34,499 bases of DNA from an uncultured delta proteobacterium (GTDB taxonomy: Bacteria; Desulfobacterota; Syntrophorhabdia; Syntrophorhabdales; WCHB1-27): the NCBI GenBank assembly GCA_963810935.1, contig CAWEPK010000020.1, forward strand, positions 1 through 34,499, in the 5' to 3' direction. This document shows positions 7,170-26,384 of this stretch, one piece after another. The notes beneath the pieces are model-generated. The model was given only the letters and a program-made list of their open reading frames with translations, did not search any database and had not been told where the DNA came from. Numbering within the stretch: the stretch's first letter is position 1; every line of letters begins with the position of its first letter. Made by a program: the position numbers and the translations under genes.

Positions 7170-7250
7170 CGGTCCTTCGCGGTCCGGAAGACTTCCAAAA
7201 TCGCCAGCCTTGAACCCCATGCTCTTTCGGTGGTAATCCCCCACCATGTT

Positions 7251-7259
7251 TGTTATAAT
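7251..7259 (+). promoter_or_regulatory. Extended -10 promoter for the lemA-TPM operon
   Basis: TGtTATAAT about 25 nt upstream of ATG 7285, with GGAGG RBS in between. Confidence 0.6.
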
Positions 7260-7284
7260 TGACAAAATCTTACGCGGAGGGAAC

Positions 7285-7870
7285 ATGAGAAGAATATTAC
7301 CCTTTCTGCTCCTGGCGGTCTTTGCGTCAGGGCTTTACGGGTGCGGCTATAACGAAATGCAGGCCAAAGAGGAGGGCGTATTCGCTGCGTGGGGGGACGT
7401 CGAGGCGGCATACCAGCGCCGGACGGACCTTGTCCCGAACCTTGTCGAAATCGTGAAGGGATACGCGAAACACGAGAGCGAGACGCTTAAAGCAGTAACG
7501 GAGGCCAGGGCAAAGGTAGGGTCCGTCCAGGTGTCCAAGGAGATGCTCGCCAAGCCCGAACAAATGGCGCACTTCCAGCAGGCACAGTCGCAGCTCGGCT
7601 CGGCCCTGTCGCGCCTGCTCGTCGTCTCGGAGCAGTACCCCAACCTGAAGGCGAACCAGAACTTCATGGACCTGCAGAACCAGGCTCGAAGGAACGGAGA
7701 ACAGGATAAACGTGGCCAGGGTCAGGTACAACCGGGCCGTGCAGGAGTTCAACGTCAGCATCCGCACCTTTCCCAACTCCATGACCAACTCGCTGCTCCT
7801 CCATCTGGTGAGGAAAGAGCCCTTCAAAGCGGACGAGGGGGCAAAGACTGCACCCAAAGTCAAATTTTAG
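7285..7870 (+). CDS. lemA: LemA family protein (apparent +1 frameshift at ~7684)
   Basis: Lipoprotein-like start, [24 protein letters not shown]. Removing one G from CAGGCTC restores [17 protein letters not shown]...FP...PKVKF* (194 aa). Confidence 0.9.
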
Positions 7871-7877
7871 GTATGCC

Positions 7878-8831
7878 ATGAAGAGGACGGGCGCAACCCT
7901 TTTTGTCCTGGCGGCGATCTCCATATTCGCGGCCCTCGCTGCACCGGCAGGCGCCCTGCCCGTCCCGGAGTTGAGCGGCCACGTAAACGATTATGCCCGG
8001 ATGATCTCGCCTGCGGCGGCTCAAGGCCTGGAGCGCGACCTTACCAAATTCGAGGCTAGCCATTCCACGCAGATAGTGGTGCTGACGATACCCGGCCTCA
8101 AGGGCGAGAACCTGGAAGACTTTTCCATTAAGGTCGCCGAGAGCTGGAAGATAGGCCACAAGGACATCGACAACGGCGTAATCTTCCTCGTGGCAAAGGA
8201 CGACCGCAAGGTCAGGATCGAAGTGGGGCGCGGCCTCGAAGGTAGGCTCACCGACCTGATCGCCGGCCGGATTGTCAGGAACGTGGTCATACCCAGGTTC
8301 AAAACAGGCGATTTCGACGGCGGCATCATGGCCGGCGTAAGCAGCATCATGGAGATTGTACAAGGCGAGTACGCCGGCCGCGCTGCCCGCGAGCCTGCCT
8401 CCGGACAAAAAGGTGCGCCGATCTTCACCCTTCTCATCTTCCTCTTCGTCATCCTCGTTTTTGCGGGCGCCCTTTCCAGGATAGCCGGCGCAGCAGTGGG
8501 GGCTATCGGCCTTCCTGCCGTCGCAAAGCTCTCCTTTCCTGTCCTCGGCTTTCCGATACTGGGCGGCATCGCGGTCGTCGGGGTCCTTGCGGGCCTTTTT
8601 GTCCACAGCCTCTTCTCGGGGGGCAGGCAAAAACCGGGCGGAAAGACGCGCGGCGGTAAAGGCGGCGGAGACGATGGAGGCGGGTTTCTGGGCTTTTTGA
8701 CCGGGTTCCTTCTCGGAGGATTTTTCGGTGGAGGATGGGGCGGAGGCGGCGGCTTGGGTGGCGGAGATTCCGGCGACTTTTCGGGCGGCGGCGGAGATTT
8801 CGGAGGCGGCGGCGCGTCAGGGGATTGGTAG
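7878..8831 (+). CDS. TPM domain (YgcG-like) membrane protein
   Basis: VNDYA, RIEVGRGLEG.LTD motif, Gly-rich tail GGGGDFGGGGASGDW. Confidence 0.9.
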   Translation: MKRTGATLFVLAAISIFAALAAPAGALPVPELSGHVNDYARMISPAAAQGLERDLTKFEASHSTQIVVLTIPGLKGENLEDFSIKVAESWKIGHKDIDNGVIFLVAKDDRKVRIEVGRGLEGRLTDLIAGRIVRNVVIPRFKTGDFDGGIMAGVSSIMEIVQGEYAGRAAREPASGQKGAPIFTLLIFLFVILVFAGALSRIAGAAVGAIGLPAVAKLSFPVLGFPILGGIAVVGVLAGLFVHSLFSGGRQKPGGKTRGGKGGGDDGGGFLGFLTGFLLGGFFGGGWGGGGGLGGGDSGDFSGGGGDFGGGGASGDW

Positions 8832-8850
8832 CTCCGTATAGGGGGTTGGG

Positions 8851-9477
8851 ATGAAAATAAACGCCAAGACGCTCTTCAGCGATGCGCAGAAAGAGAAGAT
8901 CCGGGAGGCGGTAAAGGCTGCCGAGTGCTCGACGCGGGGCGAGATCATGGTCATGCTCGTGGACGAGAGCGACCCGTACCGCGAGGCCGAGCTGGCCGGG
9001 GCATTCTCCCTTTCCGGCCTCGTCGCGCTTCTTTTATCCGTTATACTGCACCTCACCTCCATCTGGTTCTTCATCCCTGTAACGGTCGTCCTTTTCGTGC
9101 CGTTCCTGGTGCTTTTCAGGAGGTTGCCGCACCTCAAGCTTGCCCTCCTCACCCACAAGAGGGTCGACGAAGCGGTGAGGGAAAGGGCCTTTTACGCATT
9201 TTTCCAGAAAGGCGCACATCTGGCTGAAGGGCAGACGGGCATCCTCATCTTCATCTCGGTGCATGAGCGGAAAGTCTGGATTCTCGCGGACAAGGGCATC
9301 CACGGCAAAGTCGCCCACGATGTCTGGGGTTCCCTGGCCAGGGAAGTCGCCGAGGGCATCAAGGAAGACCGCGCGTTCGACGCCCTTTGCGCAGTAATCC
9401 GCAAATGTGGCGCGGAGCTGGCGCGCCACTTCCCCGGCGCCTCCTCCGGCAAGCCGCAGGCGGACGTAATTTCCTGA
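8851..9477 (+). CDS. TPM domain membrane protein
   Basis: AE..TRGEI, TGILIFIS..ER.V.ILADKGI, HFP motifs; third gene of the common LemA-TPM-TPM triad. Confidence 0.88.
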   Translation: MKINAKTLFSDAQKEKIREAVKAAECSTRGEIMVMLVDESDPYREAELAGAFSLSGLVALLLSVILHLTSIWFFIPVTVVLFVPFLVLFRRLPHLKLALLTHKRVDEAVRERAFYAFFQKGAHLAEGQTGILIFISVHERKVWILADKGIHGKVAHDVWGSLAREVAEGIKEDRAFDALCAVIRKCGAELARHFPGASSGKPQADVIS

Positions 9478-9554: not shown

Positions 9555-9584
9555 TTGACAGAGCATTCTCAGCAATGTTATCAA
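9555..9584 (+). promoter_or_regulatory. Sigma70-type promoter of the sdh-Rieske-cyt b operon
   Basis: TTGACA (9555-9560), 18-nt spacer, TGn-TATCAA extended -10 (9576-9584). Confidence 0.55.
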
Positions 9585-9586: not shown

Positions 9587-9898
9587 ATGCATATGTTTAT
9601 TTGGCTATTCCACAGAACCAGCGGAGTGGCGCTCCTTGTACTTTTCAGCCTGAAGATTTTCTCCGCTTATTTTCTTTATACGAAGGACAAGAAGCCCGAC
9701 TGGGCCCTTGGCATCCACAGGAACCCGGTCCTCGATATCCTGATACTCGTGCTCTTCACCTTTCACAGCCTTTACGGTCTGAGAACCATAGCGATAGATT
9801 TCGGCTACAAAAAGGAGAAGCAGCTTTTCTGGCTGTCGAACGCGCTCGGTTGCATCATTTCGGCAGTTCTGATACTGCTCTACGCCAAAGTAGCATAG
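9587..9898 (+). CDS. sdhC: Succinate dehydrogenase/fumarate reductase cytochrome b small membrane anchor (SdhC-like, 3 TM)
   Basis: HRTSG and FHSLYGLR..AID motifs, three hydrophobic segments; start ambiguous (9575/9587/9593). Confidence 0.75.
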   Translation: MHMFIWLFHRTSGVALLVLFSLKIFSAYFLYTKDKKPDWALGIHRNPVLDILILVLFTFHSLYGLRTIAIDFGYKKEKQLFWLSNALGCIISAVLILLYAKVA

Positions 9899-9899
9899 C

Positions 9900-11603
9900 A
9901 TGGTCCAACATGATGTCATTATCGTCGGGGGCGGCCTGGCCGGATTGCGCGCAGCAGTCGGCCTTTGCGACAAGTACGACGTGGCCCTCGTATCCAAAGT
10001 ACACCCCATAAGGTCCCATTCCATAGCGGCCCAGGGGGGCATCAACGCAGCCCTCGCAAACAACCCGGACGGCAAAGACGACACGTGGGAAAAGCACACC
10101 TTCGACACGATCAAGGGGAGCGATTACCTCGCCGACCAGGACGCGGTCGAGATCATGTGCAAAGAAGCGATCAACATCGTCTATGAGATGGAGCATTGGG
10201 GCTGCCCCTTCAGCCGCTTCCCGGACGGCACGATAGCCCAGCGCCCGTTCGGCGGCGCAGGCTTCCCGAGGACCTGCTTCTCGGCAGACCTGACAGGCCA
10301 CGTGCTCCTCAACACGCTTTACGAGAGGGCGGTAGCGAGGGGCGTCAAGGTCTATTACGAATACGTAGCCATCGGGCTGGCGGAGGAGGAAGGCACATGC
10401 CACGGCGTAGTCCTTATCGACCAGGTCAAAGGTGAAGTTATCCCCGTCATGGCGAAGGCGACGCTTTTCGCCACGGGCGGCTACGGCCGGATTTACCTCC
10501 ACTCGACCAACGCCCTGATCAACAACGGCAGCGGCATCGGCATGGCATACGCGGCTGGCGTCTCGATGAAAGACATGGAGTTCGTCCAGTTCCATCCGAC
10601 CACGCTCTTAGGCAGCAACATCCTCATGTCCGAGGCCTGCCGGGGCGAGGGCGCTTACCTCGTCAACAACAAGGGCGAGCGCTTCATGCAGCGGTACGTG
10701 CCGAAGGCCATGGAGCTTGCCCCGCGCGATATCGTGTCGAGGAGCATACAGTCGGAGATCGAGGCGGGCAACGCCTTCGAGAACGAGCTGGGCAAATACG
10801 TGCATCTCGACCTGCGTCACCTCGGTGCGAAGAAGATACTCGAAAGGCTCCCGGGCATACGCAACATGTCGATCGATTTCTCGGGGGTCGATCCCATCAA
10901 CGAGCCGATCCCCATCATGCCGTGCCAGCACTACTCGATGGGCGGCATCGATACGAATGAGGCCGGCGAGACGGTGCTTAAAGGCTTTTATGCAGCGGGC
11001 GAGTGCGCCTGCGTGAGCGTCCACGGCGGGAACAGGCTGGGCGGCAACTCGCTTCTGGACACCATCGTCTTCGGCAAAATCTGCGCGGGCAGCATCGACA
11101 AATACCTCCGCGCAGGGGGGGTGGCGCCGCGTGAGGCAGCGGTCGCCCGGAAAAAAGAGGAGATGGAGAAGAAGATCCGCAAGCTGTCGGACGAAGGAAG
11201 CGAAAAACCGTTCGCCGTGCTCGAAGAGCTGCGGAAAACGATGGACGAATACGTCGGCATATTCAGGACCAGGGCCGAGCTTGAGACGGGCCTTCAAAGG
11301 GTGCTGGCAATTAAGGAAAAATACAAGCGCGTGAGGCTTACGTCCGCGGCCCTCCATATGAACTACGAGCTTATCGGCGCCCTCGAGCTTGAGTCGATGA
11401 TCGAGGTGGCCCACGCCACCGCGCTCGGGGCGCTTTTGCGCGAAGAAAGCAGGGGCGCCCATTACAGGCGTGATTTCACGAAGAGGAACGACCAGGATTG
11501 GCTCAAGCACACGCTCGCGACAAAGGGCCCTGACGGGGAGCTGTCCATCTCGTACAGGCCCCCCGTTATCACCAGGTACCAGCCGATGGAGAGGACCTAT
11601 TGA
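9900..11603 (+). CDS. sdhA: Succinate dehydrogenase/fumarate reductase flavoprotein subunit
   Basis: GGGLAG, RSHSIAAQGG (covalent FAD His), QFHPT, EACRGEG, APRD, HYSMGG, HGGNRLGGNSL, ESRGAH; no signal peptide. Confidence 0.96.
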   Translation: MVQHDVIIVGGGLAGLRAAVGLCDKYDVALVSKVHPIRSHSIAAQGGINAALANNPDGKDDTWEKHTFDTIKGSDYLADQDAVEIMCKEAINIVYEMEHWGCPFSRFPDGTIAQRPFGGAGFPRTCFSADLTGHVLLNTLYERAVARGVKVYYEYVAIGLAEEEGTCHGVVLIDQVKGEVIPVMAKATLFATGGYGRIYLHSTNALINNGSGIGMAYAAGVSMKDMEFVQFHPTTLLGSNILMSEACRGEGAYLVNNKGERFMQRYVPKAMELAPRDIVSRSIQSEIEAGNAFENELGKYVHLDLRHLGAKKILERLPGIRNMSIDFSGVDPINEPIPIMPCQHYSMGGIDTNEAGETVLKGFYAAGECACVSVHGGNRLGGNSLLDTIVFGKICAGSIDKYLRAGGVAPREAAVARKKEEMEKKIRKLSDEGSEKPFAVLEELRKTMDEYVGIFRTRAELETGLQRVLAIKEKYKRVRLTSAALHMNYELIGALELESMIEVAHATALGALLREESRGAHYRRDFTKRNDQDWLKHTLATKGPDGELSISYRPPVITRYQPMERTY

Positions 11604-12364
11604 CGGACGCGGCAAGCGATATTTACACGTTCAGGGTACTGCGGTACGACGCGAAGACGCCGGAGGCTAAGCCCTCCTTCTCGTCCTACCGCGTTCGGGT
11701 GATCCCCGGCCTGACGGTCCTTACGGTCCTTAACCGGATACGCGACGAGATCGACGGCACGCTGGCTTTCCGCTCGTCGTGCAGGGCGGCCACGTGCGGC
11801 TCGTGCGCGATGATCATCAACGGAAAGCCCGGCCTTGCGTGCAGGACGCAGATAGCCGTGGCGTCCGCGGGCAAGCTGGAGCTTGTGCTGGAGCCCCTGC
11901 CGAATTTCCGGATCGTCAAGGACCTCGTCGTCGATATGGCCCCCTTCTGGGAGGCGTACGAGCGGATCAAGCCCTTCATGATAAGGAAAAGCGCGGACCC
12001 GGATAAAGAGATATTCCAGAGCGAGGAAGACAGGCAGCGGATCGACCAGTTCGTCAACTGCGTGCTCTGCGCATGCTGCTACGGCGCGTGCGAGGCGTTG
12101 CGGCGCGAGCCTGACTACCTGGGGCCCGCCGCGCTGGCGAAGCTCCAGAGGTTCATGCTCGACTCCCGCGACGAGAGACCCGACGCCTTCCTACGGTCGG
12201 TTGACTCGCAAACGGGCGTCTGGGGGTGCGATACGCTCTTCCGGTGCATCGACGCGTGCCCCAAAGAGGTCCGGCCGACGGACGGCATCGTCGGCCTGCG
12301 GAAGAGGCTCGTAAAATACAGGCTTAAGCGGCTCTTCGGCGCGGGCGGCGGCAATGAAGATTGA
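11600..12364 (+). CDS. sdhB: Succinate dehydrogenase/fumarate reductase iron-sulfur subunit
   Basis: SCRAATCGSC...C ([2Fe-2S]), CVLCACCYGAC ([4Fe-4S]), CDTLFRCIDACP ([3Fe-4S]-type); DLVVD motif. Confidence 0.95.
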   Translation: MTDAASDIYTFRVLRYDAKTPEAKPSFSSYRVRVIPGLTVLTVLNRIRDEIDGTLAFRSSCRAATCGSCAMIINGKPGLACRTQIAVASAGKLELVLEPLPNFRIVKDLVVDMAPFWEAYERIKPFMIRKSADPDKEIFQSEEDRQRIDQFVNCVLCACCYGACEALRREPDYLGPAALAKLQRFMLDSRDERPDAFLRSVDSQTGVWGCDTLFRCIDACPKEVRPTDGIVGLRKRLVKYRLKRLFGAGGGNED

Positions 12365-12824
12365 TTATTCCTTTGTAACGCGCAGGACTTTCCTTAATAC
12401 GCTTTTAGGCGGCTGGCTCGCCTCCTTCGCGTTCGGCAGCCTCGTTGCCCTTTACAGGTTCGCGTTCCCGACGCTGGGGAAGGAGCCGGACTTCGTCGTT
12501 CTCAGGCCCGAAGACTTTCTGAACATCCCGGCCAACTCGACGAAGCCCTTCGCCTGGGGAGGCAAAGTCGGCCTCTTCCTCAAGAAGGCGGACAACAAGC
12601 TGGTGGCGCTCAAGGGCGTCTGCTCGCACATGGAGTGCAACATCGTCTACAAGCCGGAGGACAGAAAATTCTACTGCCCCTGCCACAAGGGGTGGTTCGA
12701 CGAGAACGGAAAGAACGTGGACGGCCCTCCGCCCAAGCCGCTGGAGTTCTTCGAGTACAGGGTGGAGGACAAGAAGCTGATCGTTTACAGGAAAGGGGTA
12801 AAGGTTGAGCTTCCCAAAGCTTAA
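12354..12824 (+). CDS. Rieske [2Fe-2S] protein of a Rieske/cytochrome b complex
   Basis: TRRTFL twin-arginine motif plus TM helix; CSHMEC and CPCH boxes; GPPPKPL proline loop. Confidence 0.93.
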   Translation: MKIDYSFVTRRTFLNTLLGGWLASFAFGSLVALYRFAFPTLGKEPDFVVLRPEDFLNIPANSTKPFAWGGKVGLFLKKADNKLVALKGVCSHMECNIVYKPEDRKFYCPCHKGWFDENGKNVDGPPPKPLEFFEYRVEDKKLIVYRKGVKVELPKA

Positions 12825-13872
12825 GGGCTGGATCACCGAGCGCTACGACGTGGCGGATGAGATGCGCGATATCGCCCGCCACAAGCTCGTGCCTGTCCAT
12901 AGTCGTGAGATCTGGTACTACACGGGCGGCGCCGTCCTCTTCCTCTTTATCGTCCAGTTCCTGACAGGCATTGCCCTGGCCTTTTATTACGTGCCCTATT
13001 TCGAGAAGGCCCACGAGAGCGTCGTCGAGATCGTGACGAAGCTCAACATGGGGTGGTTTTTCCGCTCCCTCCACCACTGGGGCGCGCAGGCCGCGATATT
13101 CGTCATGTTCGTCCACGTGTTCGCCACCTTGCTCCTGAAATCTTACAGGAAGCCCAGGGAGCTGCTCTGGATATCCGGCTTTTGCCTCCTCGGCATCTCC
13201 ATCTTCTTCGGCCTGTCCGGCTACTTCCTCCTGTGGGACGAGCGGGCCTTCGCCGCAGTGCGCGTGGCAACGGGAGGCGCGGGCAACCTGCCGATCTTCG
13301 GAGGATGGATAAGAGCCTTCCTGCGGGGCGGCATCGACGTGACCGGCGAGACGCTCACCCGCTTCTACGCCTTCCACGTCTGCCTGCTGCCTTTACTGGT
13401 GCTCGCCATAGCCGGCTTTCACCTTCTTCTGGTCCAGTTCCACGGGATGAGCGTGCCCGTGTCACAGAAGGGCAAGGACCTGAAACAGGTCCCCTTCTTC
13501 CCGAATATACTCTACCGGGACTTCATTATCTGGCTCGTCGCGCTCGGCGTCATCGTCACCCTGGCTACTCTGCTGCCGCCGGAGATCGCCAAAAAGGCCG
13601 ACCCGCTCGCGCCGGCGCCCGAGGGTGTGAAGCCGGAATGGTATTTCCTCTTCCTCTTCCAGACGCTGAAATTATTCCCCGGCACAATCGCCGGCATGAA
13701 CGGCGAGACGATCGCCATAGTCCTTATAAGCCTCGGGATCCTTTTCTTCTTCCTGCTGCCCTTCTTCGACAGGAAGTCGAGCCTGGAAGAGCGCAGCCCG
13801 CTGTTTACGGCAATCGGCATCGCCTACCTGATCTACTTCGTCGTCATGACGATAGTGGGCTATGTGACATGA
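12805..13872 (+). CDS. Cytochrome b subunit of a bc-type complex (unsplit)
   Basis: Heme ligands in RSLHHWGA, FVHVF, YAFHV, GFHLL; YRKPREL.W, TLTRFY, KPEWYFL Qo motif; TTG start overlaps the Rieske end. Confidence 0.94.
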   Translation: MSFPKLKGWITERYDVADEMRDIARHKLVPVHSREIWYYTGGAVLFLFIVQFLTGIALAFYYVPYFEKAHESVVEIVTKLNMGWFFRSLHHWGAQAAIFVMFVHVFATLLLKSYRKPRELLWISGFCLLGISIFFGLSGYFLLWDERAFAAVRVATGGAGNLPIFGGWIRAFLRGGIDVTGETLTRFYAFHVCLLPLLVLAIAGFHLLLVQFHGMSVPVSQKGKDLKQVPFFPNILYRDFIIWLVALGVIVTLATLLPPEIAKKADPLAPAPEGVKPEWYFLFLFQTLKLFPGTIAGMNGETIAIVLISLGILFFFLLPFFDRKSSLEERSPLFTAIGIAYLIYFVVMTIVGYVT

Positions 13873-13883
13873 AGGAGCGCTTA

Positions 13884-14129
13884 ATGAAAGGACTCCTTTC
13901 CCTCATCGCAGCTTTCCTGTCTACCGCAGCCGGCCCTGCGGCTGCCGAACAAATCAGCCTGCTTCCGCCGTCGGCCTACGACCGCTCCGAGATATACCTC
14001 AACCTGGCCTTTTTCTGGATCGGCATCATCGTGCTCATAGTGCTGATACGGTTCAAGCTGCGGGAGACGGAGCGCGTGCAGGCGATGGAAACAAAAGAGA
14101 ACGGCGAAACAACGCCTTTGCTCGAATAG
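13884..14129 (+). CDS. Small membrane protein (signal-peptide-like N-terminus plus one TM helix)
   Basis: GAAGGAG RBS then MKGLLSLIAAFLSTAAGPAAA-EQ...LAFFWIGIIVLIVLIRFKLRE; alternative ATG 13869 overlaps the cyt b stop (ATGA). Confidence 0.7.
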   Translation: MKGLLSLIAAFLSTAAGPAAAEQISLLPPSAYDRSEIYLNLAFFWIGIIVLIVLIRFKLRETERVQAMETKENGETTPLLE

Positions 14130-14236: not shown

Positions 14237-15637
14237 ATGTGCGCGGAAAAGGTCAAGCTAAGCAAAGACACGAAGATGGCGATGGTCTCCCAGTTCTTAG
14301 GCTTCATGCTCGATGCCTACGACATGGCCCTGGTCCTGGTTATGGCGCCTATCCTCGTGAAGGTCTTCGCGTCCCCGAAAGGGAGCGAGGCCTGGCAGTA
14401 CATCACCGTCGTCTTCACCTATTCGATCACGATGGCCGCAAGGCCCGTCGGCTCGGCAATTTTCGGCCATTACGCGGACAAGATAGGGCGTAGGCGCCTG
14501 CTCGTCATGACAATAGCCGGCGTCGGCGTCATGTCGGGCGTTGCCGGCTTCCTCCCTACCTATGCGCAGATAGGCGTCTGGTCGTACGTCCTTTTCTGCG
14601 TCCTCCGCTTCGTGATGGGCTGTTTCTTCGGCGGGGAATATGCAGTGGGCCACACGTTCGCCATAGAGCATGCCCCTTCCAAGAAGCGCGGGACAATCGG
14701 CGGCTTCGTCCAGTCCGGCTTCCCCCTGGGCTACGTGCTGGCTTCCCTGGTATTCGCCTTCATTTCCATTTTCGCCGGGAAGGCCGCCATGTCTTCCTAC
14801 GGCTGGCGCATCGCCTTCATGACCGGCATCATCCCCGTGCTCCTGGCGCTCTATATCAGGCGGATGCTGCCGGAATCGCCCGAGTTCGAAAAGGCCAAGG
14901 CGAGGGGCGACGTGGAAAAGGCGCCTTTCTTCAGCCTCTTTAAGCCTCCGGCGCTCTGGGATTTCCTCCAGGTCTTCATTTTCATGACGGGCCTTTTCCT
15001 CACCGATTATTCGGTTTACGGGTTCCTGCCGAACATACTAACCTTAGGCGGGCGCGGCTTCGACCCGACTACCTACAGCCTCATCTACGGCTTCGCGCTC
15101 TTTATGGCCTTCCTGGGCTACAACTTCTACGGCTGGCTTTCCGACCGCACGGGAAGGAAGTCGCTCACCATGTGGTATTGCGTCTTCCTCGTCGTCTTCG
15201 GCATCCCCGTCTACTATGTGCTCTACAACGCAGCCGTAGCCCACAACATCGCCCTCGCCGTAGTAGGCACGGTGATGGCGGCGATGCTCAAGCTCGCATG
15301 GGGCATCGTGCCTGCCTACCTATCGGAACGCTTCCCGACCAGGAGGCGGGCCGTCGGCGTCGGCTTCGGCTACTCGGCTGGCGCCCTCATCGGCGCGGGC
15401 TTCAGCCTGTACGTCTGGTATGCCCATAACATCCCTTACATAAAGTCGATAGAGGGGAAGGACATGTGGCTCTCCCCCGCAGTAATACTGACGGTCGGCG
15501 CTATCATCACGTTCTGCAGCCTGCTCTATAGTCCGGAGACGAAAGGCATAGAGTTGTCGGACGTGGTAGCCGGCAAAGGCAGGAAGGCCGGGGCGGCCCC
15601 CGGAAAAGCGGAGGCCGGCGGTGTAGGAACGGTATAA
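14237..15637 (+). CDS. MFS transporter (metabolite:H+ symporter-like)
   Basis: LDAYD, ARPVGSAIFGHYADKIGRR, GGEY, SDRTGRK, SERFPT, PETKG motifs; about 12 TM. Confidence 0.92.
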   Translation: MCAEKVKLSKDTKMAMVSQFLGFMLDAYDMALVLVMAPILVKVFASPKGSEAWQYITVVFTYSITMAARPVGSAIFGHYADKIGRRRLLVMTIAGVGVMSGVAGFLPTYAQIGVWSYVLFCVLRFVMGCFFGGEYAVGHTFAIEHAPSKKRGTIGGFVQSGFPLGYVLASLVFAFISIFAGKAAMSSYGWRIAFMTGIIPVLLALYIRRMLPESPEFEKAKARGDVEKAPFFSLFKPPALWDFLQVFIFMTGLFLTDYSVYGFLPNILTLGGRGFDPTTYSLIYGFALFMAFLGYNFYGWLSDRTGRKSLTMWYCVFLVVFGIPVYYVLYNAAVAHNIALAVVGTVMAAMLKLAWGIVPAYLSERFPTRRRAVGVGFGYSAGALIGAGFSLYVWYAHNIPYIKSIEGKDMWLSPAVILTVGAIITFCSLLYSPETKGIELSDVVAGKGRKAGAAPGKAEAGGVGTV

Positions 15638-15647: not shown

Positions 15648-15682
15648 GCAGGCGTCTTGGCGAAATTGTCTAGGACGCCTGC
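15648..15682. terminator. Hairpin between convergent MFS and AddB-like genes
   Basis: GCAGGCGTCTTGG pairs with CTAGGACGCCTGC (13 bp with G-U pairs) and overlaps the AddB-like stop; no clear U-tract. Confidence 0.5.
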
Positions 15683-18555
15683 CACTGGGTGCCGCAGAGA
15701 TACCTGTAGTCGCAGAAAAGGCAGGCGTCCTTCGCCCTGTATTCGGGGCTGAAGGACGCCTTCTCGTCTGCAATCTCCCTCATCAGGCGCAGGATCACTT
15801 CACGGGCTTTTGCATTATGTGCCGCCTTCTCCTCGTCGTCACCGAAAAGGGGCGCTTCGGTCTTTTCGTCGATGAACGTCCTTCCGAGGAGCAAAAATAG
15901 CGCGTCGGGCACGCCGCCCACAGCCACGCCCGCGTCAGGCTGTGCGCCCTGCGCCCCGTACAGCAGGAGGTAGAAAGGCAGTTGAAGGCTCCCGGCCGCA
16001 TCGGCATATCCCGCCCTGTTGTCCGGGTCGAGGCGGCCGAAATCGACGGCGAGGCGCTTCGCCGATGAGGATATCTTGTAGTCGATTATACAGAGCCGTC
16101 CGCCCCTGGTCTCTGTCCTGTCGATGATCCCTTTGAGCCGAAAACCTGACAATTCCGCGGTCATGCGCCGCTCGAGCCCGTGCACTACAACGGGCATCTC
16201 ATTGACCATGGCCGCCTGGTAACGGATAAGGAACGCCTCCATCCGGCTCAACACCTGCCGCTTCAGAAGGTAAGCGGGGCCGATGGGCGACGGCCCGTAG
16301 GATTTCTCGAACACGCGGGACGCAACCGCGCGCATCTCGCCCGTATCGATGTCGGCGGCCGTGAGCAGCCGGCCGGTCCTGTTTCCGAAATATTGGAAGA
16401 GGATGTCGTGGACGAGCCTGCCTATGTCCATCCTCTCTATGTCGGAGGAAGCACCTTCCTTCCGCTCCAGGTCGAGGACGTACCTGTAATAGAAACGGAG
16501 CGGGCACTTGAGGTATGCGTCGAGGGAGGTCGCGTCGTAGGGCCGGGCCTGAAGAAAGGCGGCCATCGCGGCGGTCTTCTCTACGGGCCGGGGCAGCGCG
16601 TTTTCGAGGCTCATCCTGGCGCCGCACGTCCTGACGTGCCTGCCCGTCGCCGACCCGTCCTTTTTCTGCCTTTCCCAGAGCAGCCGTTCTACGAACCTGC
16701 TCTTTTCCTTCCTGTCGTTCTCTACGAAAAAGAGGTGCACCTCGCCCGCGCCCTTCACGAGCGTGTCGAAATAATAGGCGCTCAGCATGTCCCTATCGAT
16801 ATATGTGGGCAGCCCGAGCACCTGTCTTACCTTAAAGGGCAGCAGCGTCTCTTCCTTGCGCGTGTCGGGCAGCACGTCTTCGTTTACGTCGAGCACGCAG
16901 ACGCGCTCGAACGTTAAGGCCCTCGTCTCCAGGAAGCCGAGCACCTGCACCCCCCGGAGCGGCGTGCCCTCGAAAGGCGTGATGCTGTGGGCGATGTATC
17001 TCCTGAAGAAATGGAAGTAGCTGTTCCTCTCGCTGAAGGCAAGGTCCCTGATGCGCGATTTGCGCAAACCATCCAGCTCGTTCAGGAGCGATTCGACGAA
17101 TGGATGAAAGTACGGGTGCAGGCGGGCCGAGCTGCGGTCGTAAATGAAGGTCAGGATGCGTGCCATCCTCTCCGCGAAGTCGGCTATATTGTCGAACGCG
17201 CACGCCTGCCGGACGGATGCATCGTGGATCGTAGAGAGGTGGCACGCAAGGAGGTCGGCCCCCACCGGCTCCCCTGCGGCTGCAAGCCTCTCGGATGCGG
17301 TGTTAAAAACGCCGGTCAGCCCTTCTATCTCTTCAAGGGACGCGAAACTCTTCGTCCTGTCCGCAAGCAGGGTTTCTTCCAGCGCGTGGAACATGATCCT
17401 CGTCACGTCTGTCCTCCCCTCCATATAGATGTTTTTCGTGTAAGGGTGGAGCGCGAAGCCGAGGTAGTCCGGTATGTAGACGCGCCCCTCGTCCATCGAC
17501 GAGACGACCTGCATGAGGCTGACGAGGAAGCCCCACGCAGGCGTGCGGTCGAGCGGATAACCGAGGGAGACGTTGTAGCTCTCGCCGGCAAAGGGCAGGG
17601 CATGGTGAAGCACGGGGAAAAGCGTCTCCGCGGAAGGCAGGACGATCACGGTGGAAAGATCGTCCCCAGGCGGCCGCCCGCCTTCTGCGGCCCCCTTCAG
17701 CACCGAGGCGAGCGCGAAGGCCTGCCCGTGGACATCGGCGCTCTTATAGAAATGTATGCCGTCTTCCCTGCCGTCGCCGTCAGGCGTTGGAGGCTGCCAG
17801 GCAATGCCCACCGTTGCAAGCTTTTCGGCAAGGCCGGGCCCCTCGGTAAAAAGAAAGCAGACGTGCTCCCATGACATAAGCTCCTTGAAGAGCCGCCTTT
17901 CGCTTTCCGTCAGGGCATAGAACCCCGCGAAGACGATGCGCTCGTACGGCATGAGGCCGCGGCTGATCGACGACGAGACGGCCGCGTAACGCTGCGACCT
18001 CGAAGAAAAGCCCGCCTTCCCTATCGCCGCGTAGAACCCCTCGTAAAAGAACGATAGCGATTGAAGGCCGCCGTCCGCCTGCGGCGGCAGGGGCGCCTGA
18101 AAAAGCGGCTCGACCGGGCGCAGGCGGGCAGGCTCCACGCCTTCTATCAGCAGTTCCTCGATGTCCCGGTATATGCGCAGGCCGAGCGGGAAAAACGCCT
18201 CCAGGCTCAAAAACTCCCGCCCACCCAGGGGCTTTTCCATCGACCTGTGTAAGTCGAAAAGGAAGGCTATCGCGTCGATGGTCTCTATCTTCGCCGTCGC
18301 ACTTGCGTCGATCTTTTCGTAGACGCGGTCCATAAGCTCTTCCATCGAGAGGATGGCCGGAGGGATATAACCCGACCCGACGGCTTGGGCGATTATCTTC
18401 CGCAGGAAATGAGCGGGCCTTTTCCCCGGAAAGACGACGAGGTTCCGCGAGAAGTCGCGTCCGTCGGGAATGAGCTGCCTTGCCGCCTCCTCCGCGAGGG
18501 ACTGCGAGGGATGAAGCACCATGTACCGGGCCTCGATCATTGCTTCTTTCGTCAT
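15670..18555 (-). CDS. AddB-like PD-(D/E)XK nuclease subunit
   Basis: VVFPGKR, QVLGFLETR, C-terminal YLKCP...GIIDR...IIDYK...CLFCDYRYLC (four-Cys Fe-S staple); coupled to the helicase by ATGA overlap. Confidence 0.88.
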   Translation of the reverse strand: MTKEAMIEARYMVLHPSQSLAEEAARQLIPDGRDFSRNLVVFPGKRPAHFLRKIIAQAVGSGYIPPAILSMEELMDRVYEKIDASATAKIETIDAIAFLFDLHRSMEKPLGGREFLSLEAFFPLGLRIYRDIEELLIEGVEPARLRPVEPLFQAPLPPQADGGLQSLSFFYEGFYAAIGKAGFSSRSQRYAAVSSSISRGLMPYERIVFAGFYALTESERRLFKELMSWEHVCFLFTEGPGLAEKLATVGIAWQPPTPDGDGREDGIHFYKSADVHGQAFALASVLKGAAEGGRPPGDDLSTVIVLPSAETLFPVLHHALPFAGESYNVSLGYPLDRTPAWGFLVSLMQVVSSMDEGRVYIPDYLGFALHPYTKNIYMEGRTDVTRIMFHALEETLLADRTKSFASLEEIEGLTGVFNTASERLAAAGEPVGADLLACHLSTIHDASVRQACAFDNIADFAERMARILTFIYDRSSARLHPYFHPFVESLLNELDGLRKSRIRDLAFSERNSYFHFFRRYIAHSITPFEGTPLRGVQVLGFLETRALTFERVCVLDVNEDVLPDTRKEETLLPFKVRQVLGLPTYIDRDMLSAYYFDTLVKGAGEVHLFFVENDRKEKSRFVERLLWERQKKDGSATGRHVRTCGARMSLENALPRPVEKTAAMAAFLQARPYDATSLDAYLKCPLRFYYRYVLDLERKEGASSDIERMDIGRLVHDILFQYFGNRTGRLLTAADIDTGEMRAVASRVFEKSYGPSPIGPAYLLKRQVLSRMEAFLIRYQAAMVNEMPVVVHGLERRMTAELSGFRLKGIIDRTETRGGRLCIIDYKISSSAKRLAVDFGRLDPDNRAGYADAAGSLQLPFYLLLYGAQGAQPDAGVAVGGVPDALFLLLGRTFIDEKTEAPLFGDDEEKAAHNAKAREVILRLMREIADEKASFSPEYRAKDACLFCDYRYLCGTQWQAS

Positions 18556-21500
18556 GGCCCGACCCGCCTCATTTTCTTCGCGTCCACGTATGCGATGACG
18601 CCCTCCACCGGCTTATCTTTATATATTTCGCTCATCAGGCGCAGGTAATTGCGCATCTGGGCCAGGTGGTCCTCAAAGTCGTCTTCTCTGCCTGTCTTGA
18701 ACTCCATTACGGTGATCCGGTCCGCGTCGATGACGACCCTGTCCGCTCTGAAAAGCCGGCCCCTTGCGTCCGCAAGCTCCTGCTCCAGCATTACCCGCCT
18801 GCCGGTTCGCCTTTCGAAATGGGCCGCTGCGCCGGCATCGCTTAAGAACGCGCTTATCGCTTCCGTGAGCGGCTGCGGCACGCTGTCCGCGCCTTCCGTT
18901 TTACGCACCTTCCCGGCTGCCGCGCCGACTTTGGCCGCTGCATCGCCGTCAATGTAGTCGATCAGCGAGAATATCCGGTGGACGATCTCGCCGCGCCGCC
19001 TCGAAGCGTACCGCATCGGCCCCTCCGGGCCGGACGGGGCCTCGAAACGCGCGGCCGGGTGCACGGCCTCGATCCGTTCGTCGCCGCCTGTCTCCTTGCG
19101 CTCCTGCCTTTCGGGAGGCGCCGGGGGGGCCTTTGCGAAGACGGCCGTGCCTTCAGGTAGAAGACCGAAAGGGAATAAGCTCTTATCGTTCGGGTACTTC
19201 ACGGCTATGACGTACAGCTCGGCGCCCGCCCGCGTGAACGCCACATAAAGGCTGTTGAGCTTCGCGACCTTTTCCTTCGTCTCCTCCATGCGGTAGCGCT
19301 CTTCGAACGCCTCATCAGCGCCAAGCATGTTTTTAGTCAGCCGCAGGAGCGCGATTGAGCCTTCCGACTCCTGGACGATGTAGCGGAACCCCCTGCTCTT
19401 ATCGGTGTAAAAAAGCAGTATGACAACCGGGAAGCCCAGGCCCTTCGCCTTGTGGACCGTCATGACTTTCACCGCGTCCACGCCCCCCGGTATCGCGACG
19501 TTCCAATCGGCCTCCGCCGCGTCGGACAGCAAGGCTGCGTCGAGGAAGCGCCTTAGGCCTCCGCCCTCGGCTTCCAGGTCCTTCACCACTTCGAGTATCC
19601 GGGAAAGGGCCGCCTCTTCCGACGGGAAGCGGGCAAAGACGTCGAATACGCGGTAGACCTCCACGACCAGGTCGTAAAGGGGCAAATACCCGGCGAGCCG
19701 GAAAAGCCGGTCGAAGAAGCGGTCCCAGAGGGCGGGCATCTCGTCCTGAAAACGCTTGTAGAGTGGACGGTCGCCCGCGCGGTTCCTGAACGCCATCTCG
19801 TGGAGGGCCTGCCCGGTAGCTCCGCCGTGTGCCTTAAGAGCAGCGGCCATGACGTCCCCCAAAAGGAACGTGGCAAAGGAGAGGCTGTCCGGCGGCGAGT
19901 CGAAAAAAGCGAGGAGCGCGACTATCTCGCCCGTGATCTTGCGCCTCCGCACGTCGAGGCTGCTGTACGAGACGAAGGGTATGGCCTGCGCGTTGAGCCA
20001 CGCGGTCACCTTGACGACGTCGTCGTTCCGCTGGGTGAGCACCGCAATGTCCGAGCGGCGGTAACCCCTTTCGAAAAGCCGCGCTAGCAAGCCGCAAAGG
20101 TGCTCCCTCTCAGGCGCGGCCCTGTCGTCCCTGTCGAGGACGCACGTCTCGACGTACCCGCGGGCCTCGCGCCCGCTTTTAGCCTCCTGCCTGTAAGTAA
20201 GCAGGCCGCTGTCGGACCCCGCCTCCCGGTACGCCTCGATGCGCGGCAGCACTTTCTGGAAGACGTGCTCCGAGAAGCCGACGACGGCCCCGTCGCTCCT
20301 GTAGTTCGTGTGCCAGCTCCTCGACGTTCTTGGGGCTGGACGGGAAGGGGTTGCCTGTCTCCAGGCCCCTCATGATCGTATAGTCCGCGTCCCTGAAGCC
20401 GTAAATCGCCTGCTTCGTGTCCCCCACAACGAAGAGACTCCCCCCCTGGGAGAGGGAGTTGTCGATCAGGGGCAGGAGGTTGCGCCACTGGATCGGGGAG
20501 GTGTCCTGGAACTCGTCGATAAGGTAATGGACGATCGCCTCGCCAAGCCTGAAATAGACATCGGGTACTATCTGCGCGTCCAGGTATTCCGCGAGCCTGC
20601 TGTTCACGTCCTCGATGAATATCTTGCCTTCATGCCTCTTGGCCCGCTCGAGTATGGCGCTGAAAGCCTCGTAAGTGCGCAGGTACGGGATATAGTAGCT
20701 GCACGCGAACAGCCTGGTGAAATCGGTGATGAGGCCGCAGGCGCGCTCCCATTCCTCGATTGCGCTATGATAAGGCTCGCGCCCTTCTTTCGTTTTCGGC
20801 AGGCAGACAGGCGGGAGCTTGCGCCCCCTGTCCACCAGGTCGGCGAACCTGCCCGCCCTGGCCGCCTTCAGTATATTAGGGTAGGCGCTGCTCTTATGCC
20901 TTACGAGCCCGGACGCCTCTATCTGCGCGTCCAACTGCTCCAGGCAGCCGGCGATATCCCCCCTTGCCGCATCGATGGCGGCCGAGTAGTCGTCCATTTG
21001 CACAGGCTTGCCGCGGGAGGCAACCTTCCGGTATATCTCCTCTATCTCGGCGAGTATCGCGCCGGTCGGCTCGAAGGGATAAGGAGCGTCGCCTGCCGTG
21101 TTCTCGGCTATGATATCGACGACCTTCTCCATCAGGCGCGCCTCTTCCGTCCCTTCCCTGACCCGCCTCAAAAAAAGCTCGAAGGCATAACCCATCAGCC
21201 CTGAGTTGTTCATGAGTATCTCGAAATCAGGGTTATAGCCGAAGTCGATGGCCGACGCCTTAAAAACGGTCGTCATGAAGCTGTCGATCGTCTTTATCTG
21301 GAAGTCGCTGTAGCGCGAGAGGATTTCGTCGATCACCTCGCCCGCCCTCGCCGATATCGCATCAGGCGGCAGGGTGAGGTCGCGGCCGAAATCCGCCAGG
21401 ACGTGCTTCTCCCCCAGGTGGAGCTGCTTCAGAAACAGCAGTATCCTCTCCTTCATCTCCCTGGCCGCGTTATTGGAGAAGGTAATGGCGAGGAGGTTCC

Positions 21501-21639
21501 CCAGCCGGTTCTGGCGCACGGAATCGGAAAGAAGGAAGAGCACGAAGCGCCGGGCGAGGGCATACGTTTTCCCGGAGCCCGCTGAGGCCTTGAGCACGGT
21601 AAAATGAGGGAACGTCAGGCGTTTTTCTTGTGAGGCCAA
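18552..21639 (-). CDS. AddA-like UvrD helicase-nuclease (apparent +1 frameshift at ~20312)
   Basis: ASAGSGKT, IDEFQDTS, VGDTKQAIYGFR; in the next frame TNYRS, MTVHKAKGLGF, YVAFTRA and nuclease RADR..EFKTG. Removing one base joins both ORFs (1028 aa). Confidence 0.9.
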
Positions 21640-23244: not shown

Positions 23245-24213
23245 TCATTCCTCGTAAGGTCCGAGAAAACGTTCGCCGTTAAAGTGGATCAAATGGGTCG
23301 GGGAATCGGCAATCCAGACTTCCGTTTCCCACGAAATATCATTCAAGTATTTGAGCATCGATCTACGGTCGAGAAAAGCGGTCACAAACACCAAGCCGGC
23401 AGTTGAACCGGAGAATAGTTCCTTTAGCTCCCGCCTACGCTTTGGATCCACAGGTCCGTGACTGGTCACGGCTTCAACCAGCACTAACCAGTTCTTCTCC
23501 GCATGATAGATTACGATATCGGGCATCTTCCCGTGTTCTTCCATCCTAAGGTTCAACGAGGACAGCGCGACTGCGTCGAAGTATGCCCACTTTACCTGGG
23601 TGTCCCCCACATAGATGACGCGCCCACCCGGCGTGAACAATGGACAAAAATCATCAATGATCTTTTTTACCAAGATATTCTGGCCACCCGGCGAAAGGCT
23701 TATTGTCCGGGCATTTGCCAGTTGAACGGGCAGTCGCCTCATATCTCTTTCCAGTGCATAGAGATTCTTCAGGGTCTTGAGCGTCTGTAAGTATTTCTGC
23801 AAATTCTTCTTCCATCCAGGCCTGCCGAAGCCGCGCACGAGCTTCAATGCCAACGGCTCGATCTGGTAGACAGCTTTCGGGCTGTTTGTCGGCCTGGAGG
23901 GTTTGTCCGGATTCGCTATGATCAAAGCAGCCTGAACAAATTGGTGTACCGTTTGGCGACGTACCGTCTCACGCGTGTTGGGCGCATATCGCTTGCCGTA
24001 GTGTTCGGAGAAGAAATCCATCATCGGAGTAATGCCCATGAGCGGATTGGAGGCATCTCGCCAAGGGTCCGTTGGCTTCAGGCCAAGCAGCGAAACGAGG
24101 GTGAGCGCAGAACGCTCGTTCTGTTGCTGTCTGGGTAACCCCAACTCAACCAGTATTGAGAGGGCTTCCCTGATTTTCTGTTCCGCTTTCTCGCCGCCGG
24201 ATTTCTCAACCAC
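23245..24213 (-). CDS. BsuBI/PstI family type II restriction endonuclease
   Basis: YAPNTRETVRRQT.HQF, NSPK..Y, LSPGGQN, HGKMPD..LVEAVTSHGP, WETEVW, HFNGERFLGPY. Confidence 0.93.
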   Translation of the reverse strand: MVEKSGGEKAEQKIREALSILVELGLPRQQQNERSALTLVSLLGLKPTDPWRDASNPLMGITPMMDFFSEHYGKRYAPNTRETVRRQTVHQFVQAALIIANPDKPSRPTNSPKAVYQIEPLALKLVRGFGRPGWKKNLQKYLQTLKTLKNLYALERDMRRLPVQLANARTISLSPGGQNILVKKIIDDFCPLFTPGGRVIYVGDTQVKWAYFDAVALSSLNLRMEEHGKMPDIVIYHAEKNWLVLVEAVTSHGPVDPKRRRELKELFSGSTAGLVFVTAFLDRRSMLKYLNDISWETEVWIADSPTHLIHFNGERFLGPYEE

Positions 24214-25726
24214 AGGTTTCGCACTCCCTTTCGACTATTGCATCAAGTGACTCCTGGTCCGGCATTGTTTCCTTTACACAAAGCCCAAACCGCGCGAGTT
24301 GTTGGTGAGTGGGGTAGGGCATTTTCTTGAGATCGGTTGCATTGACCTGAGTATGGCCGCTGAATAGACGGAAATACTGATCGGCAAGCGTGGAGTTAAG
24401 GTACAGAGCAAGTCCGTTTGCTAAATCGCGCGGTAATCCTTTACCCCCTTTATGAAAATAGTTAGTGTGGTTTTCGAAGCCAACGAAAGGGGCATTGATC
24501 CTTGAGGGGTCATATATAGCTGCCATTATCCGTCTTCGCTGTTCTTTAGACGAAAACCTTTTCGTGAGGACATAGAATCCCGCCTCGACAAGAAGGCCGG
24601 ATGTTTCCGGCGATAAGAGGATGGCTCCCGGCTTATTTTTCGATTCGATTGGCCAGGCAACGAAACCATCCCGCAAATTATGAGGATATACGAGAGGAAC
24701 GGCGCTCCCTTCCCCCGATCGCCGCAGGTACTCCCGAGCCCTGAAGTCGACCACCCGTCCGGTAGAGACGCTCAGTCCCAATTTGTTAAGGGATGAAGAG
24801 AAGCACTTAATACGCTCGGGGAGTGCTGAACCAGACGTGTCAGGTGCAAGATGGATGAACACATCCGGATCATTTGGACGAACAATTCGATTATACGGGA
24901 TTGACAATCTTTGCCCCTTGTCGAAATCCAATCCTTCAGACATAGAAATTATAACGGTTTTCGTCTTTTTAGGCTCACGGACGGCGTGATAGATTATATT
25001 CTCTTGAAGCACGTTGTCATCGCCGAATGCTTTCTTTCGCGACCCGAATACATGAATGTGCCTTAGACTCGCCATCTTCAGGAAAGCTACCCGGAATTTT
25101 CTGAAATAGGGCCCATTACAAAAGCTTCGCGGAGTTATGGCCACTATTTCACCGCCCGGCATTAACAAATGCAAGGAAAGCCATGCAAAAGCAGCGTACA
25201 TGTTGGCTACTTCAAGACCGGCCGCATAAAGCTTTTTGCTCATGGCCGTCTGGCTATTAATCTTCCTGTAGGGCGGATTGAGAATAACGTGGGTAAAGGG
25301 CCTGTCGGGAACAACAAAAAGAGATTCTCTTGTTTGGGCGATTGCGGCGGAAAGAAAATCTTCGTTTCTGACTGTCCCTCTGAAATGTATACCGCCCGAA
25401 GTACAGAGAGCTTCGCACCGCTTCATGGTCTCTTTAAGAAACGGCAGCACTGCAGTGTCTGTTTCGTAAGCCACGACTTCGATGGAAAGAGGCCGATCAT
25501 CTTTCGAAAGCAGAGTTTCAATAAGTGCAGCGAAAAGAACGCCCGTGCCTGCCCCAGGATCAAGGATTCGCGTATGGGGTGAGGCCTTTTCAAACATTGA
25601 CGACATGAACTTCGCTATAGTCGAGGGCGTAAGAAACTGCCCGATTTGAACTCTACCGGTTCTGCTATTCGAATCGTTAAAAGATTTCCGTATATGGTCA
25701 AGCGTGTGCAAATGTTTCGTTATCAC
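24206..25726 (-). CDS. N6-adenine DNA methyltransferase, M.PstI/M.BsuBI-like
   Basis: GQFLTP, LDPGAGTG, NPPY, ITPRSFCNGPYF, STGRVVDFR, GHTQVNATDL; overlaps the REase start. Confidence 0.92.
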   Translation of the reverse strand: MITKHLHTLDHIRKSFNDSNSRTGRVQIGQFLTPSTIAKFMSSMFEKASPHTRILDPGAGTGVLFAALIETLLSKDDRPLSIEVVAYETDTAVLPFLKETMKRCEALCTSGGIHFRGTVRNEDFLSAAIAQTRESLFVVPDRPFTHVILNPPYRKINSQTAMSKKLYAAGLEVANMYAAFAWLSLHLLMPGGEIVAITPRSFCNGPYFRKFRVAFLKMASLRHIHVFGSRKKAFGDDNVLQENIIYHAVREPKKTKTVIISMSEGLDFDKGQRLSIPYNRIVRPNDPDVFIHLAPDTSGSALPERIKCFSSSLNKLGLSVSTGRVVDFRAREYLRRSGEGSAVPLVYPHNLRDGFVAWPIESKNKPGAILLSPETSGLLVEAGFYVLTKRFSSKEQRRRIMAAIYDPSRINAPFVGFENHTNYFHKGGKGLPRDLANGLALYLNSTLADQYFRLFSGHTQVNATDLKKMPYPTHQQLARFGLCVKETMPDQESLDAIVERECETCG

Positions 25727-25835
25727 TTAACTTCCTTCGCAAGAATCCGCGGTCAGCCACTTATACTATTGCACGATTCGAAGACCAATTTAAAGTCAGT
25801 GCTTCCAACATGCCGTCGCGTCCTTGGCGGCCTAT

Positions 25836-26384
25836 TTACTCCACCAGCACCAGCCCGTACACGTCCCTTTCCTCGCTGTGATTTTTAACGACGTGGATGG
25901 GAAGTCCGTGGGCGCCGGCTGTTGAGAAGACGTCTATGCCGCATGCCTCCATTGCCGGCCGGGCCTCGTCCGGGTGAAGGCATTCCCCTGCGACGTTGCA
26001 CTTCGCGCACTTCCTGCACGGTCCGCATCCCATCGCAAAGGCCTTGTTGAAGCCGTCGAGGAATATCGTCCTCTCCAGGCGGGCCAGAACGTCATTGAAG
26101 CCGTCCACGGTCTTGTAGTCTTTATCCCAATGTAGATGCAACAGGATCGCCCAAGTGTAGGAGTCGAGCAGCACCCTCGTCTGCTCAGGCGTGGGGGTGC
26201 GCGGCGGGCAGCAGAGGCCTTTGCCGTAAAGGCCACAGCCGAACTGGCATTTTGTTCTGACCCACGGCGCGGTAACTACCGTCGATGCCCTTATGACGAG
26301 CGCGTCGGTTATGCCTTTTTTGAGGGCCGCCGCCGCGTACGACTTCAGCTTCTCCGGCGCCTGCCCGTCGGCGCGCTTCTTCAT
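25836..26384 (-). CDS. DUF2284 domain predicted metal-binding protein
   Basis: KCQFGC..YG...CCPP, GPCRKCAKC...C, RPAMEACGIDV. Confidence 0.88.
   Translation of the reverse strand: MKKRADGQAPEKLKSYAAAALKKGITDALVIRASTVVTAPWVRTKCQFGCGLYGKGLCCPPRTPTPEQTRVLLDSYTWAILLHLHWDKDYKTVDGFNDVLARLERTIFLDGFNKAFAMGCGPCRKCAKCNVAGECLHPDEARPAMEACGIDVFSTAGAHGLPIHVVKNHSEERDVYGLVLVE

Follow-up and report, generated by a model that had tools for sequence, protein, structure and literature searches.

How might a cell living close to thermodynamic equilibrium push electrons from succinate to menaquinone (MK), and why should the genes for its succinate dehydrogenase run straight on into those for a Rieske/cytochrome b complex? 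Succinate oxidation with MK ranks among the hardest steps that near-equilibrium anaerobes face, and the known answer is a dihaem membrane anchor through which two protons enter. The locus that raises the question lies in a stretch of 34,499 nucleotides (hereafter the window; contig CAWEPK010000020.1 of assembly GCA_963810935.1, forward strand, positions 1 to 34,499) from an uncultured Desulfobacterota of the order Syntrophorhabdales. Between 9587 and 14129 on the + strand, six tightly packed open reading frames (ORFs) encode a complex II anchor, the succinate dehydrogenase subunits SdhA and SdhB, a Rieske protein, a cytochrome b and a small protein, ORF6, in that order. The likely product of the operon is a complex II-III hybrid that has not been described before. 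A preliminary description of the window had suggested a dedicated partnership of the two halves, which is supported by conservation of the operon, congruent trees, co-varying changes in complex II and an exchange of a nonahaem cytochrome c for the Sdh genes; that the Sdh-Rieske/b module is a real, co-evolved unit we consider very probable. Two features were absent from that description: a single, rewired anchor and a missing cytochrome c. Our preferred reading, to which we give a probability of about 0.4, is that the anchor serves the Rieske protein as redox partner in place of cytochrome c1, with succinate oxidation driven by a reverse Q cycle. Complexes II and III would then form one succinate:(methyl)menaquinone oxidoreductase that, in syntrophs and other anaerobes, runs the Q cycle backwards and takes in four protons for each succinate. 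Its complex II part would be a seventh class: the anchor, encoded by one gene and homodimeric, would have its distal haem at the periplasmic face and occupy the place of cytochrome c1.

The gene junctions are as first described (a 1-nt gap at 9899 and overlaps at 11600-11603, 12354-12364, 12805-12824 and 13869-13872), and this spacing suggests that the six ORFs form one translational unit. In the window genome, which is 93% complete, sdhA and sdhB are the only close copies and the Rieske and cytochrome b genes the only match. Across 61 genomes of the window's order, the window genome (G000) among them, this cytochrome b occurs in 51, a close sdhA in 50 and both in 49, and in 47 of those 49 the two genes share contig and strand and are separated by 1.2-1.9 kb. 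Named records tell the same story: of 80 loci in all, 59 of the 60 Syntrophorhabdales/Syntrophales-type ones have the gene order, the exception starting at a contig end, as do 4 further loci; the other 16 are without sdh. The order is likewise kept in all 30 metagenome loci long enough to judge, out of 80 fetched. Adjacency unconserved among relatives had been put forward as one observation that would count against a partnership; these tallies go the other way. The operon is also found in Syntrophales, in Aminicenantia and in a third lineage (L214-L220, from a phylum sample), and the cultured Syntrophorhabdus aromaticivorans UI (L074) has it, which makes the hypothesis testable. A range including Firmicutes was rejected, because the two loci with Clostridia/Eubacteriales in their titles derive from genomes in the Aminicenantes class. 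The five junctions measure 20 nt or less in 52/57, 54/60, 61/62, 69/76 and 42/58 loci; start codons were assigned by a script that looked close to where they were expected, and loci without sdh enter the fourth count. Some genomes recur between samples, as identical rows in the SdhA tree. Four metatranscriptome runs aligned to L074 gave no transcript spanning the operon. They yielded short contigs only, at a depth of 2-4, two of which bridge sdhA and sdhB; none among the pieces displayed (55 further pieces were undisplayed) bridges the other four junctions. Such contigs could be of DNA origin and cannot prove one transcript.

The complex II half departs from its relatives chiefly in the anchor, whose predicted structure has three helices (pLDDT 96.7). 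Its best fold match is Mycobacterium smegmatis Sdh2 (6LUM, E 0.02), and SdhC and SdhD of that enzyme (chains C and D) can each be aligned to it. No second PF01127 match above cut-off was found in the window genome, nor a second anchor gene in the 80 metagenome loci. Because there is a single anchor gene and because of the SdhC/SdhD symmetry, the anchor is likely a homodimer. In M. smegmatis Sdh2, according to the excerpted text of PMC7447783, D-His107 and C-His87 hold the proximal haem and D-His65 and C-His47 the distal one. Invariant His58 of the anchor aligns with the proximal ligand C-His87, and equally invariant Lys21 occupies the column that aligns with both distal ligands. Two further columns are invariant (alignments of 43 and 37 rows), namely Asp48 and His42, the latter probably on the periplasmic side. 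A survey of 123 representative anchor hits included 99 that cover columns 21 and 42: 49 have histidine only at 21, 44 only at 42, four at both and two at neither, so that 93 carry exactly one of the pair. Since His21 and His42 alternate in this way, the distal haem histidine appears to have moved, not vanished, and His42 becomes a putative haem ligand. Lys21 co-occurs with Asp48 in 37 anchors; five rows with Gln21 are without Asp48. The divergent Lys/Gln21-His42 anchors are P0008-P0053, P0083, P0087 and P0099; one cluster of divergent His42 anchors is named from Phycisphaerae, and one Atlas cluster is mostly Myxococcota, with 22% non-Bacteria.

Anchor type and gene neighbourhood are inherited together. 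Sixty loci were fetched by anchor score, 40 of 71 hits from a 401-genome phylum sample and 20 of 96 from a 151-genome class sample. None of the 23 His21-type loci has a Rieske/cytochrome b pair within the fetched flank, and 20 of them have a recognisable second anchor gene; Rieske and cytochrome b genes are adjacent in 31 of the 37 Lys21/His42 loci. Among the other His42 loci, L219 continues on another contig (L294) and L245 keeps the Rieske gene, its cytochrome b lying elsewhere. Within the Aminicenantes class (151 genomes), the module cytochrome b is present in 39 of 39 genomes with a His42 anchor and in 0 of 57 with low-scoring anchors, ten of which were inspected and found canonical. In a quick tree, module SdhA forms one clade (SH-aLRT 95) with L210-L213 as its sister (99). 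A comparison of SdhA and cytochrome b trees had been suggested at the outset, and over 46 loci the two are congruent, with 16 strong splits in common (out of 22 and 19), a single conflicting one and a distance correlation of 0.87, an agreement that shared descent alone could explain. One canonical two-anchor locus, L228, is arranged C-D-sdhB-sdhA, and its SdhA sits on a very long branch.

In the catalytic subunits, change was seen on the quinone side of SdhB. SdhA has the covalent-FAD histidine, the dicarboxylate residues and the motifs first read in it (QFHPT, RGEG, PRD, HYSMGG and NRLG), which recur in 53 full-length relatives, two of them with one motif unmatched. Its dicarboxylate site is intact, it is without an export signal, and glutamine, a succinate dehydrogenase marker, stands five residues after the FAD histidine in 56 of 56 sequences. 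The 2Fe-2S, 4Fe-4S and 3Fe-4S cysteine patterns of SdhB are complete in 62 of 62 sequences, and the protein aligns with 6LUM_B. At the positions of the tryptophan and histidine of the proximal quinone site the window protein has Arg168 and Asp211; we take the tryptophan to be a residue of that site by analogy with Escherichia coli Trp164. Tryptophan at 168 is found in 0/56 module-type as against 22/23 canonical sequences, and histidine at 211, after the 3Fe-4S cysteine, in 6/56 as against 23/23.

The complex III half is without its usual partner. Cytochrome b carries the haem ligands H90, H104, H191 and H206 at b6 spacing together with PEWY, all invariant in 49 rows, and thus the four haem b ligands and the P[DE]W[FY] motif of Rieske/b complexes. 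The haem ci cysteine is present in none of the 49, and the chain is fused (355 aa), unlike b6f/b6c-type proteins; the idea that haem ci loss is peculiar to the module was rejected, the nonahaem-linked sister clade being also without the cysteine. The Rieske protein has both cluster boxes and the disulfide pair, and the twin-arginine translocation (Tat) pattern is kept in 48/49; a TatC gene is present in the window genome. Because of the twin-arginine motif the Rieske head should face the periplasm, and SdhAB, having no signal, the cytoplasm. At the positions of a serine and a tyrosine that raise the Rieske potential by about 130 and 65 mV, as given in the available part of PMC12954380, it has Gly (49/49) and Phe (44/49), as expected for a low-potential quinone. 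There is no CxxCH gene in the operon, and hence none of the cytochromes c1, f or c that mark bc1, b6f and bcc complexes. The nearest sdh-free relatives of this cytochrome b do have a nonahaem cytochrome c alongside, in 12/12 listed and 19/19 fetched, so that the family is seen either with the nonahaem cytochrome or with Sdh and a haem-less ORF6. The nonahaem tail was found in 0/61 genomes of the window's order (control: 4/5). The nonahaem-linked cytochromes b form their own clade (SH-aLRT 98), and a single sdh-linked clade is not rejected (p-AU 0.565). ORF6, conserved in all three lineages, has no haem motif and occupies the position of the nonahaem gene after cytochrome b; its profile matches the membrane tail of the nonahaem protein with a probability of 83% and a pairwise E of 9e-6 (67% with a thinner profile), and its single-sequence HMM gives weak matches to the tails (E 0.14-9). 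An Atlas lead to CcmD_alt (score 0.83, below the useful mark) remains a rival identity. In Aminicenantia, nonahaem-linked Rieske/b paralogues (L278-L297) also lie inside large multihaem cytochrome clusters with genes of up to 17-19 CxxCH, and an 850-residue frame at L271:1459-4011 combines motifs of cytochrome b (with PEWY), CxxCH and Rieske type, marking it as a b-c-Rieske fusion.

Each half may therefore supply what the other lacks: the Rieske head needs a partner on the periplasmic side and the partner of its family is gone, while complex II is without the marks of its quinone site and has gained a histidine. Under our preferred reading, electrons would pass from succinate through FAD and the three FeS clusters to the proximal haem (His58/His58'), from there to a distal haem shifted towards the periplasm (His42/His42') and on to the Rieske 2Fe-2S cluster, docked against the anchor. 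Quinone would be reduced at Qo, the second electron coming from quinol at Qi by way of bH and bL, and the net reaction would be succinate + MK to fumarate + MKH2 with four protons entering, as against two for the dihaem class A/B enzymes. A complex prediction with two anchors, four haems, Rieske protein and cytochrome b, in which the anchor was scored, gave 0.00 and returned no contacts, which is evidence neither way.

The energetics bear on direction. The fumarate/succinate couple lies at +30 mV and MK at -60 to -74 mV; methylmenaquinone (MMK) lies at -156 mV in Syntrophus aciditrophicus, a value borrowed here for the hosts of the operon. The gap so computed is 180-372 meV per succinate, to bridge which four charges need 45-93 mV and two 90-186 mV; with MMK, 186 mV is needed for two charges and 93 mV for four. 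If it exists, a reverse Q cycle would thus double the driving force, enough for MMK, and amount to a new wiring of two textbook complexes. At the usual gradient such a four-charge machine would run only towards succinate oxidation, a direction with which the glutamine marker of SdhA agrees. The preliminary description had left the Q cycle open to either direction; the reverse cycle for succinate oxidation is now favoured, and the forward cycle conserving energy in fumarate reduction disfavoured, because, the flavoprotein being inside and the Rieske head outside, four charges would cross per fumarate, which is affordable only below 45-93 mV. The operon might nevertheless encode a fumarate reductase of the reductive citric acid branch, serving succinyl-CoA and 2-oxoglutarate biosynthesis, with quinol bifurcated and one electron sent to fumarate via the Rieske protein. 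Its hosts are strict anaerobes, the shallow coverage by RNA contigs would be in keeping, if weakly, with an anabolic function, and neighbouring genes of the citric acid cycle are compatible with both directions. In four loci of the third lineage such genes continue the operon, fumarase in two and succinyl-CoA synthetase with 2-oxoacid:ferredoxin oxidoreductase in two; these, and a methylmalonyl-CoA mutase found in 46/51 cytochrome b genomes, also count for the preferred reading. The window genome has class I fumarase, methylmalonyl-CoA mutase, two CcsB and DsrMKJOP. Against a fumarate reductase, SdhA has glutamine, not glutamate, at the flavin marker, and a Q cycle with its return path would move four charges for 180-372 meV, possible only at a very low gradient or with slipping; we regard this alternative as unlikely.

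Somewhat less improbable, though still doubtful, is an arrangement in which SdhAB feeds the cytoplasmic side, either from the proximal haem to bH and Qi, as Mitchell's donor 'd', or into the quinone pool, while the Rieske protein passes its electrons to a cytochrome c encoded elsewhere and a forward Q cycle pulls the reaction. This would need no haem at His42. It has a forerunner in Mitchell's scheme, where succinate dehydrogenase is the second donor (PMC5600118, section 10), and another in the anammox complexes that join a cytoplasmic oxidoreductase to Rieske/b, as excerpted from PMC12954380. Cytochrome c maturation genes are present in 61/61 genomes, which led us to reject an argument from their absence, and the window genome has other c-type cytochromes and a cbb3-like oxidase gene. 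Yet 34 of the 51 cytochrome b genomes are without a haem-copper oxidase match (peroxidases and nitrite reductase lay outside the survey), the nonahaem partner was not found in the 61 genomes, the haem ci cysteine is absent (0/49), and the invariant His42 is left unexplained. Haem-copper family matches occur in 17/21 genomes of the window's family and in 3/39 of the order's other families. In the window genome, the cbb3-like oxidase subunit I stands beside a Qrc/alternative complex III-like module (L199, G000:C8 at ~777-791 kb).

Several observations weigh against our preferred reading. In the model, His42 terminates a surface helix and might not bind haem at all; with no distal haem, no electron would reach the Rieske head. 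The maturation genes and other c-type cytochromes make a Rieske partner in trans possible. Loss of the proximal quinone site is not unique, because M. smegmatis Sdh2 is also without a working one, and the glutamine marker is common to canonical loci too (20/22). Many Aminicenantia keep a nonahaem-linked paralogue as well. The relatives are not independent, the tallies reflecting about three or four lineages, and some 30 more divergent His42 anchors stand outside the gene-context counts. MqnA/D, MqnC, MenB and MenD all gave no match above cut-off in the window genome, and MqnA/D appears in only 4/61 genomes of the order; quinone may be supplied by salvage or by an unfamiliar head-group route. 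The window genome has a MenA-like prenyltransferase match just under the cut-off, and UbiA-family prenyltransferases occur in 60/61 genomes, along with several quinone-linked complexes. Finally, the operon is split in one genome (G209), and the anchor is not strictly module-dependent, because L210-L213 have a His42 anchor and Trp-less SdhB with no Rieske/cytochrome b nearby, their genomes holding only more distant, cytochrome c-linked Rieske/b systems. The last two facts also suit an account of two independent enzymes under a shared promoter, with the His42 anchor a quinone-reactive variant, His42, Asp48 and Lys21 forming a distal quinone or proton site, and Rieske/b working separately. Against this account, among fetched loci with enough flank this cytochrome b always had the nonahaem protein or Sdh beside it, the gene overlaps are kept across lineages, and Rieske/b would be an orphan without evident acceptor in most hosts. 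We consider it improbable.

Set against known systems, the module is placed by its sequence outside complex II classes A-F, as these are defined in a figure legend of PMC10238741, and outside the cytochrome c-bearing Rieske/b types. Class A has two different three-helix anchors, SdhC and SdhD, with a distal haem on helix I/IV histidines; here there is one anchor gene in the operon and an invariant Lys21, only the proximal haem histidine, His58, being shared. The three-helix, 101-aa anchor matches neither the five-helix anchor of class B, the amphipathic CCG type of class E nor the six-helix, Rieske-bearing one of class F, and class C (E. coli SdhCDAB) is set apart by SdhC with SdhD and by a proximal quinone site with SdhB Trp and His, of which this module lacks SdhD, the Trp and, in most sequences, the His. 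Whatever the mechanism, a one-gene anchor outside classes A-F models the symmetric state from which SdhC and SdhD could have arisen. Class A M. smegmatis Sdh2 provides the best anchor and SdhB match and shares the proximal haem histidine, the Gln-type SdhA and the want of a working proximal quinone site; it differs in the single anchor gene here, with Lys at both distal histidine positions and a new His42, and in an operon that continues into Rieske/b. Class F M. smegmatis Sdh1 (7D6V) is also a succinate dehydrogenase with a Rieske-type cluster, but that cluster is embedded in its six-helix anchor (according to the same legend), whereas here a separate Tat-type Rieske protein stands beside a PEWY cytochrome b. 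The dihaem class B enzymes of Pelotomaculum, Syntrophobacter and Bacillus, for which the excerpted part of PMC10308238 describes gradient-driven, menaquinone-linked succinate oxidation, would be alike in function if our mechanism is true; their single anchor has five helices and a distal quinone site, and they are without a Rieske/b partner.

On the complex III side, the Rieske-cytochrome b-nonahaem clusters of Acidobacteriota and others (L092-L110, L278-L297) share the fused 355-aa cytochrome b (45-50% identity), the low-potential-type Rieske protein, the absence of the haem ci cysteine and, in the same gene position, a tail resembling ORF6; they differ in having the nonahaem protein, no sdh genes and a clade of their own. 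The anammox complexes of Kuenenia (Kuste4569-4574, Kustd1480-1485) likewise join Rieske/b to a cytoplasmic flavin-FeS oxidoreductase, there acting on NAD(P), and are proposed, in the part of PMC12954380 available, to drive an uphill reaction. They have multihaem cytochromes c, haem cN and high-potential Rieske proteins, whereas the present module has no cytochrome c, no ci cysteine, a Gly/Phe Rieske protein and a complex II partner with its own anchor. Anammox-like clusters, with a pyridine-nucleotide oxidoreductase/4Fe-4S gene, cytochrome b6, subunit IV, Rieske protein and monohaem cytochrome c, also occur (L273-L277; G150, G301, G447 and G182) in the four genomes that carry a His42 anchor without the Rieske module. 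Full-text literature searches returned no description of the operon; subscription-journal surveys, or the sdhA neighbourhood tables in the supplements of PMC12727194 and PMC10308238, might mention it.

The operon's first start codon needs revision. The anchor reading frame is open from 9575 and had been taken to start at 9587; ATG 9593 is more likely, given the matching start (MFIW) of relatives and the TTGACA upstream. Because of the position of this TTGACA (9555-9560), the anchor mRNA is likely leaderless, starting at 9593 from a putative promoter whose -10-like hexamer ends 8 nt 5' of the ATG (Table 1). TTGACA is kept at a similar distance upstream of the operon in many relatives; in other lineages it lies further upstream, with a ribosome-binding site. 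A consensus promoter scan did not pick up the element at 9555..9584.

Table 1. Features of the operon, in window positions
Feature	Position	Strand	Basis
Promoter-like element: TTGACA and extended -10-like hexamer	9555..9584	+	sequence; TTGACA in many relatives
Anchor, single three-helix complex II, 101 aa	9593..9898	+	PF01127
SdhA flavoprotein	9900..11603	+	TIGR01812, 764 bits (cut-off 567)
SdhB	11600..12364	+	PRK05950/TIGR00384 above cut-off
Rieske protein, twin-arginine motif	12354..12824	+	PF00355
Fused cytochrome b (b6 + subunit IV)	12805..13872	+	PF00033 + PF00032
ORF6, signal-peptide-like start and one C-terminal helix	13869..14129	+	no Pfam/NCBIfam family

The surroundings of the operon are of mixed character. 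An MFS metabolite/H+ symporter gene lies downstream (14237-15637) and was rejected as an operon member, 84-87% identical copies being near the operon in only 5/60 loci and at varying positions. A LemA-TPM-TPM cluster just upstream (7246-9477) is near the operon in only one relative. An IS110 transposase gene (36-959) marks the contig start, and the - strand carries an AddAB-like helicase-nuclease pair (15670-21639), whose UvrD-type gene occupies two overlapping frames (18552-20252 and 20179-21639), probably through a frameshift or assembly error, followed by a BsuBI/PstI-type restriction-modification pair and a HigB/HTH toxin-antitoxin pair (23245-27461).

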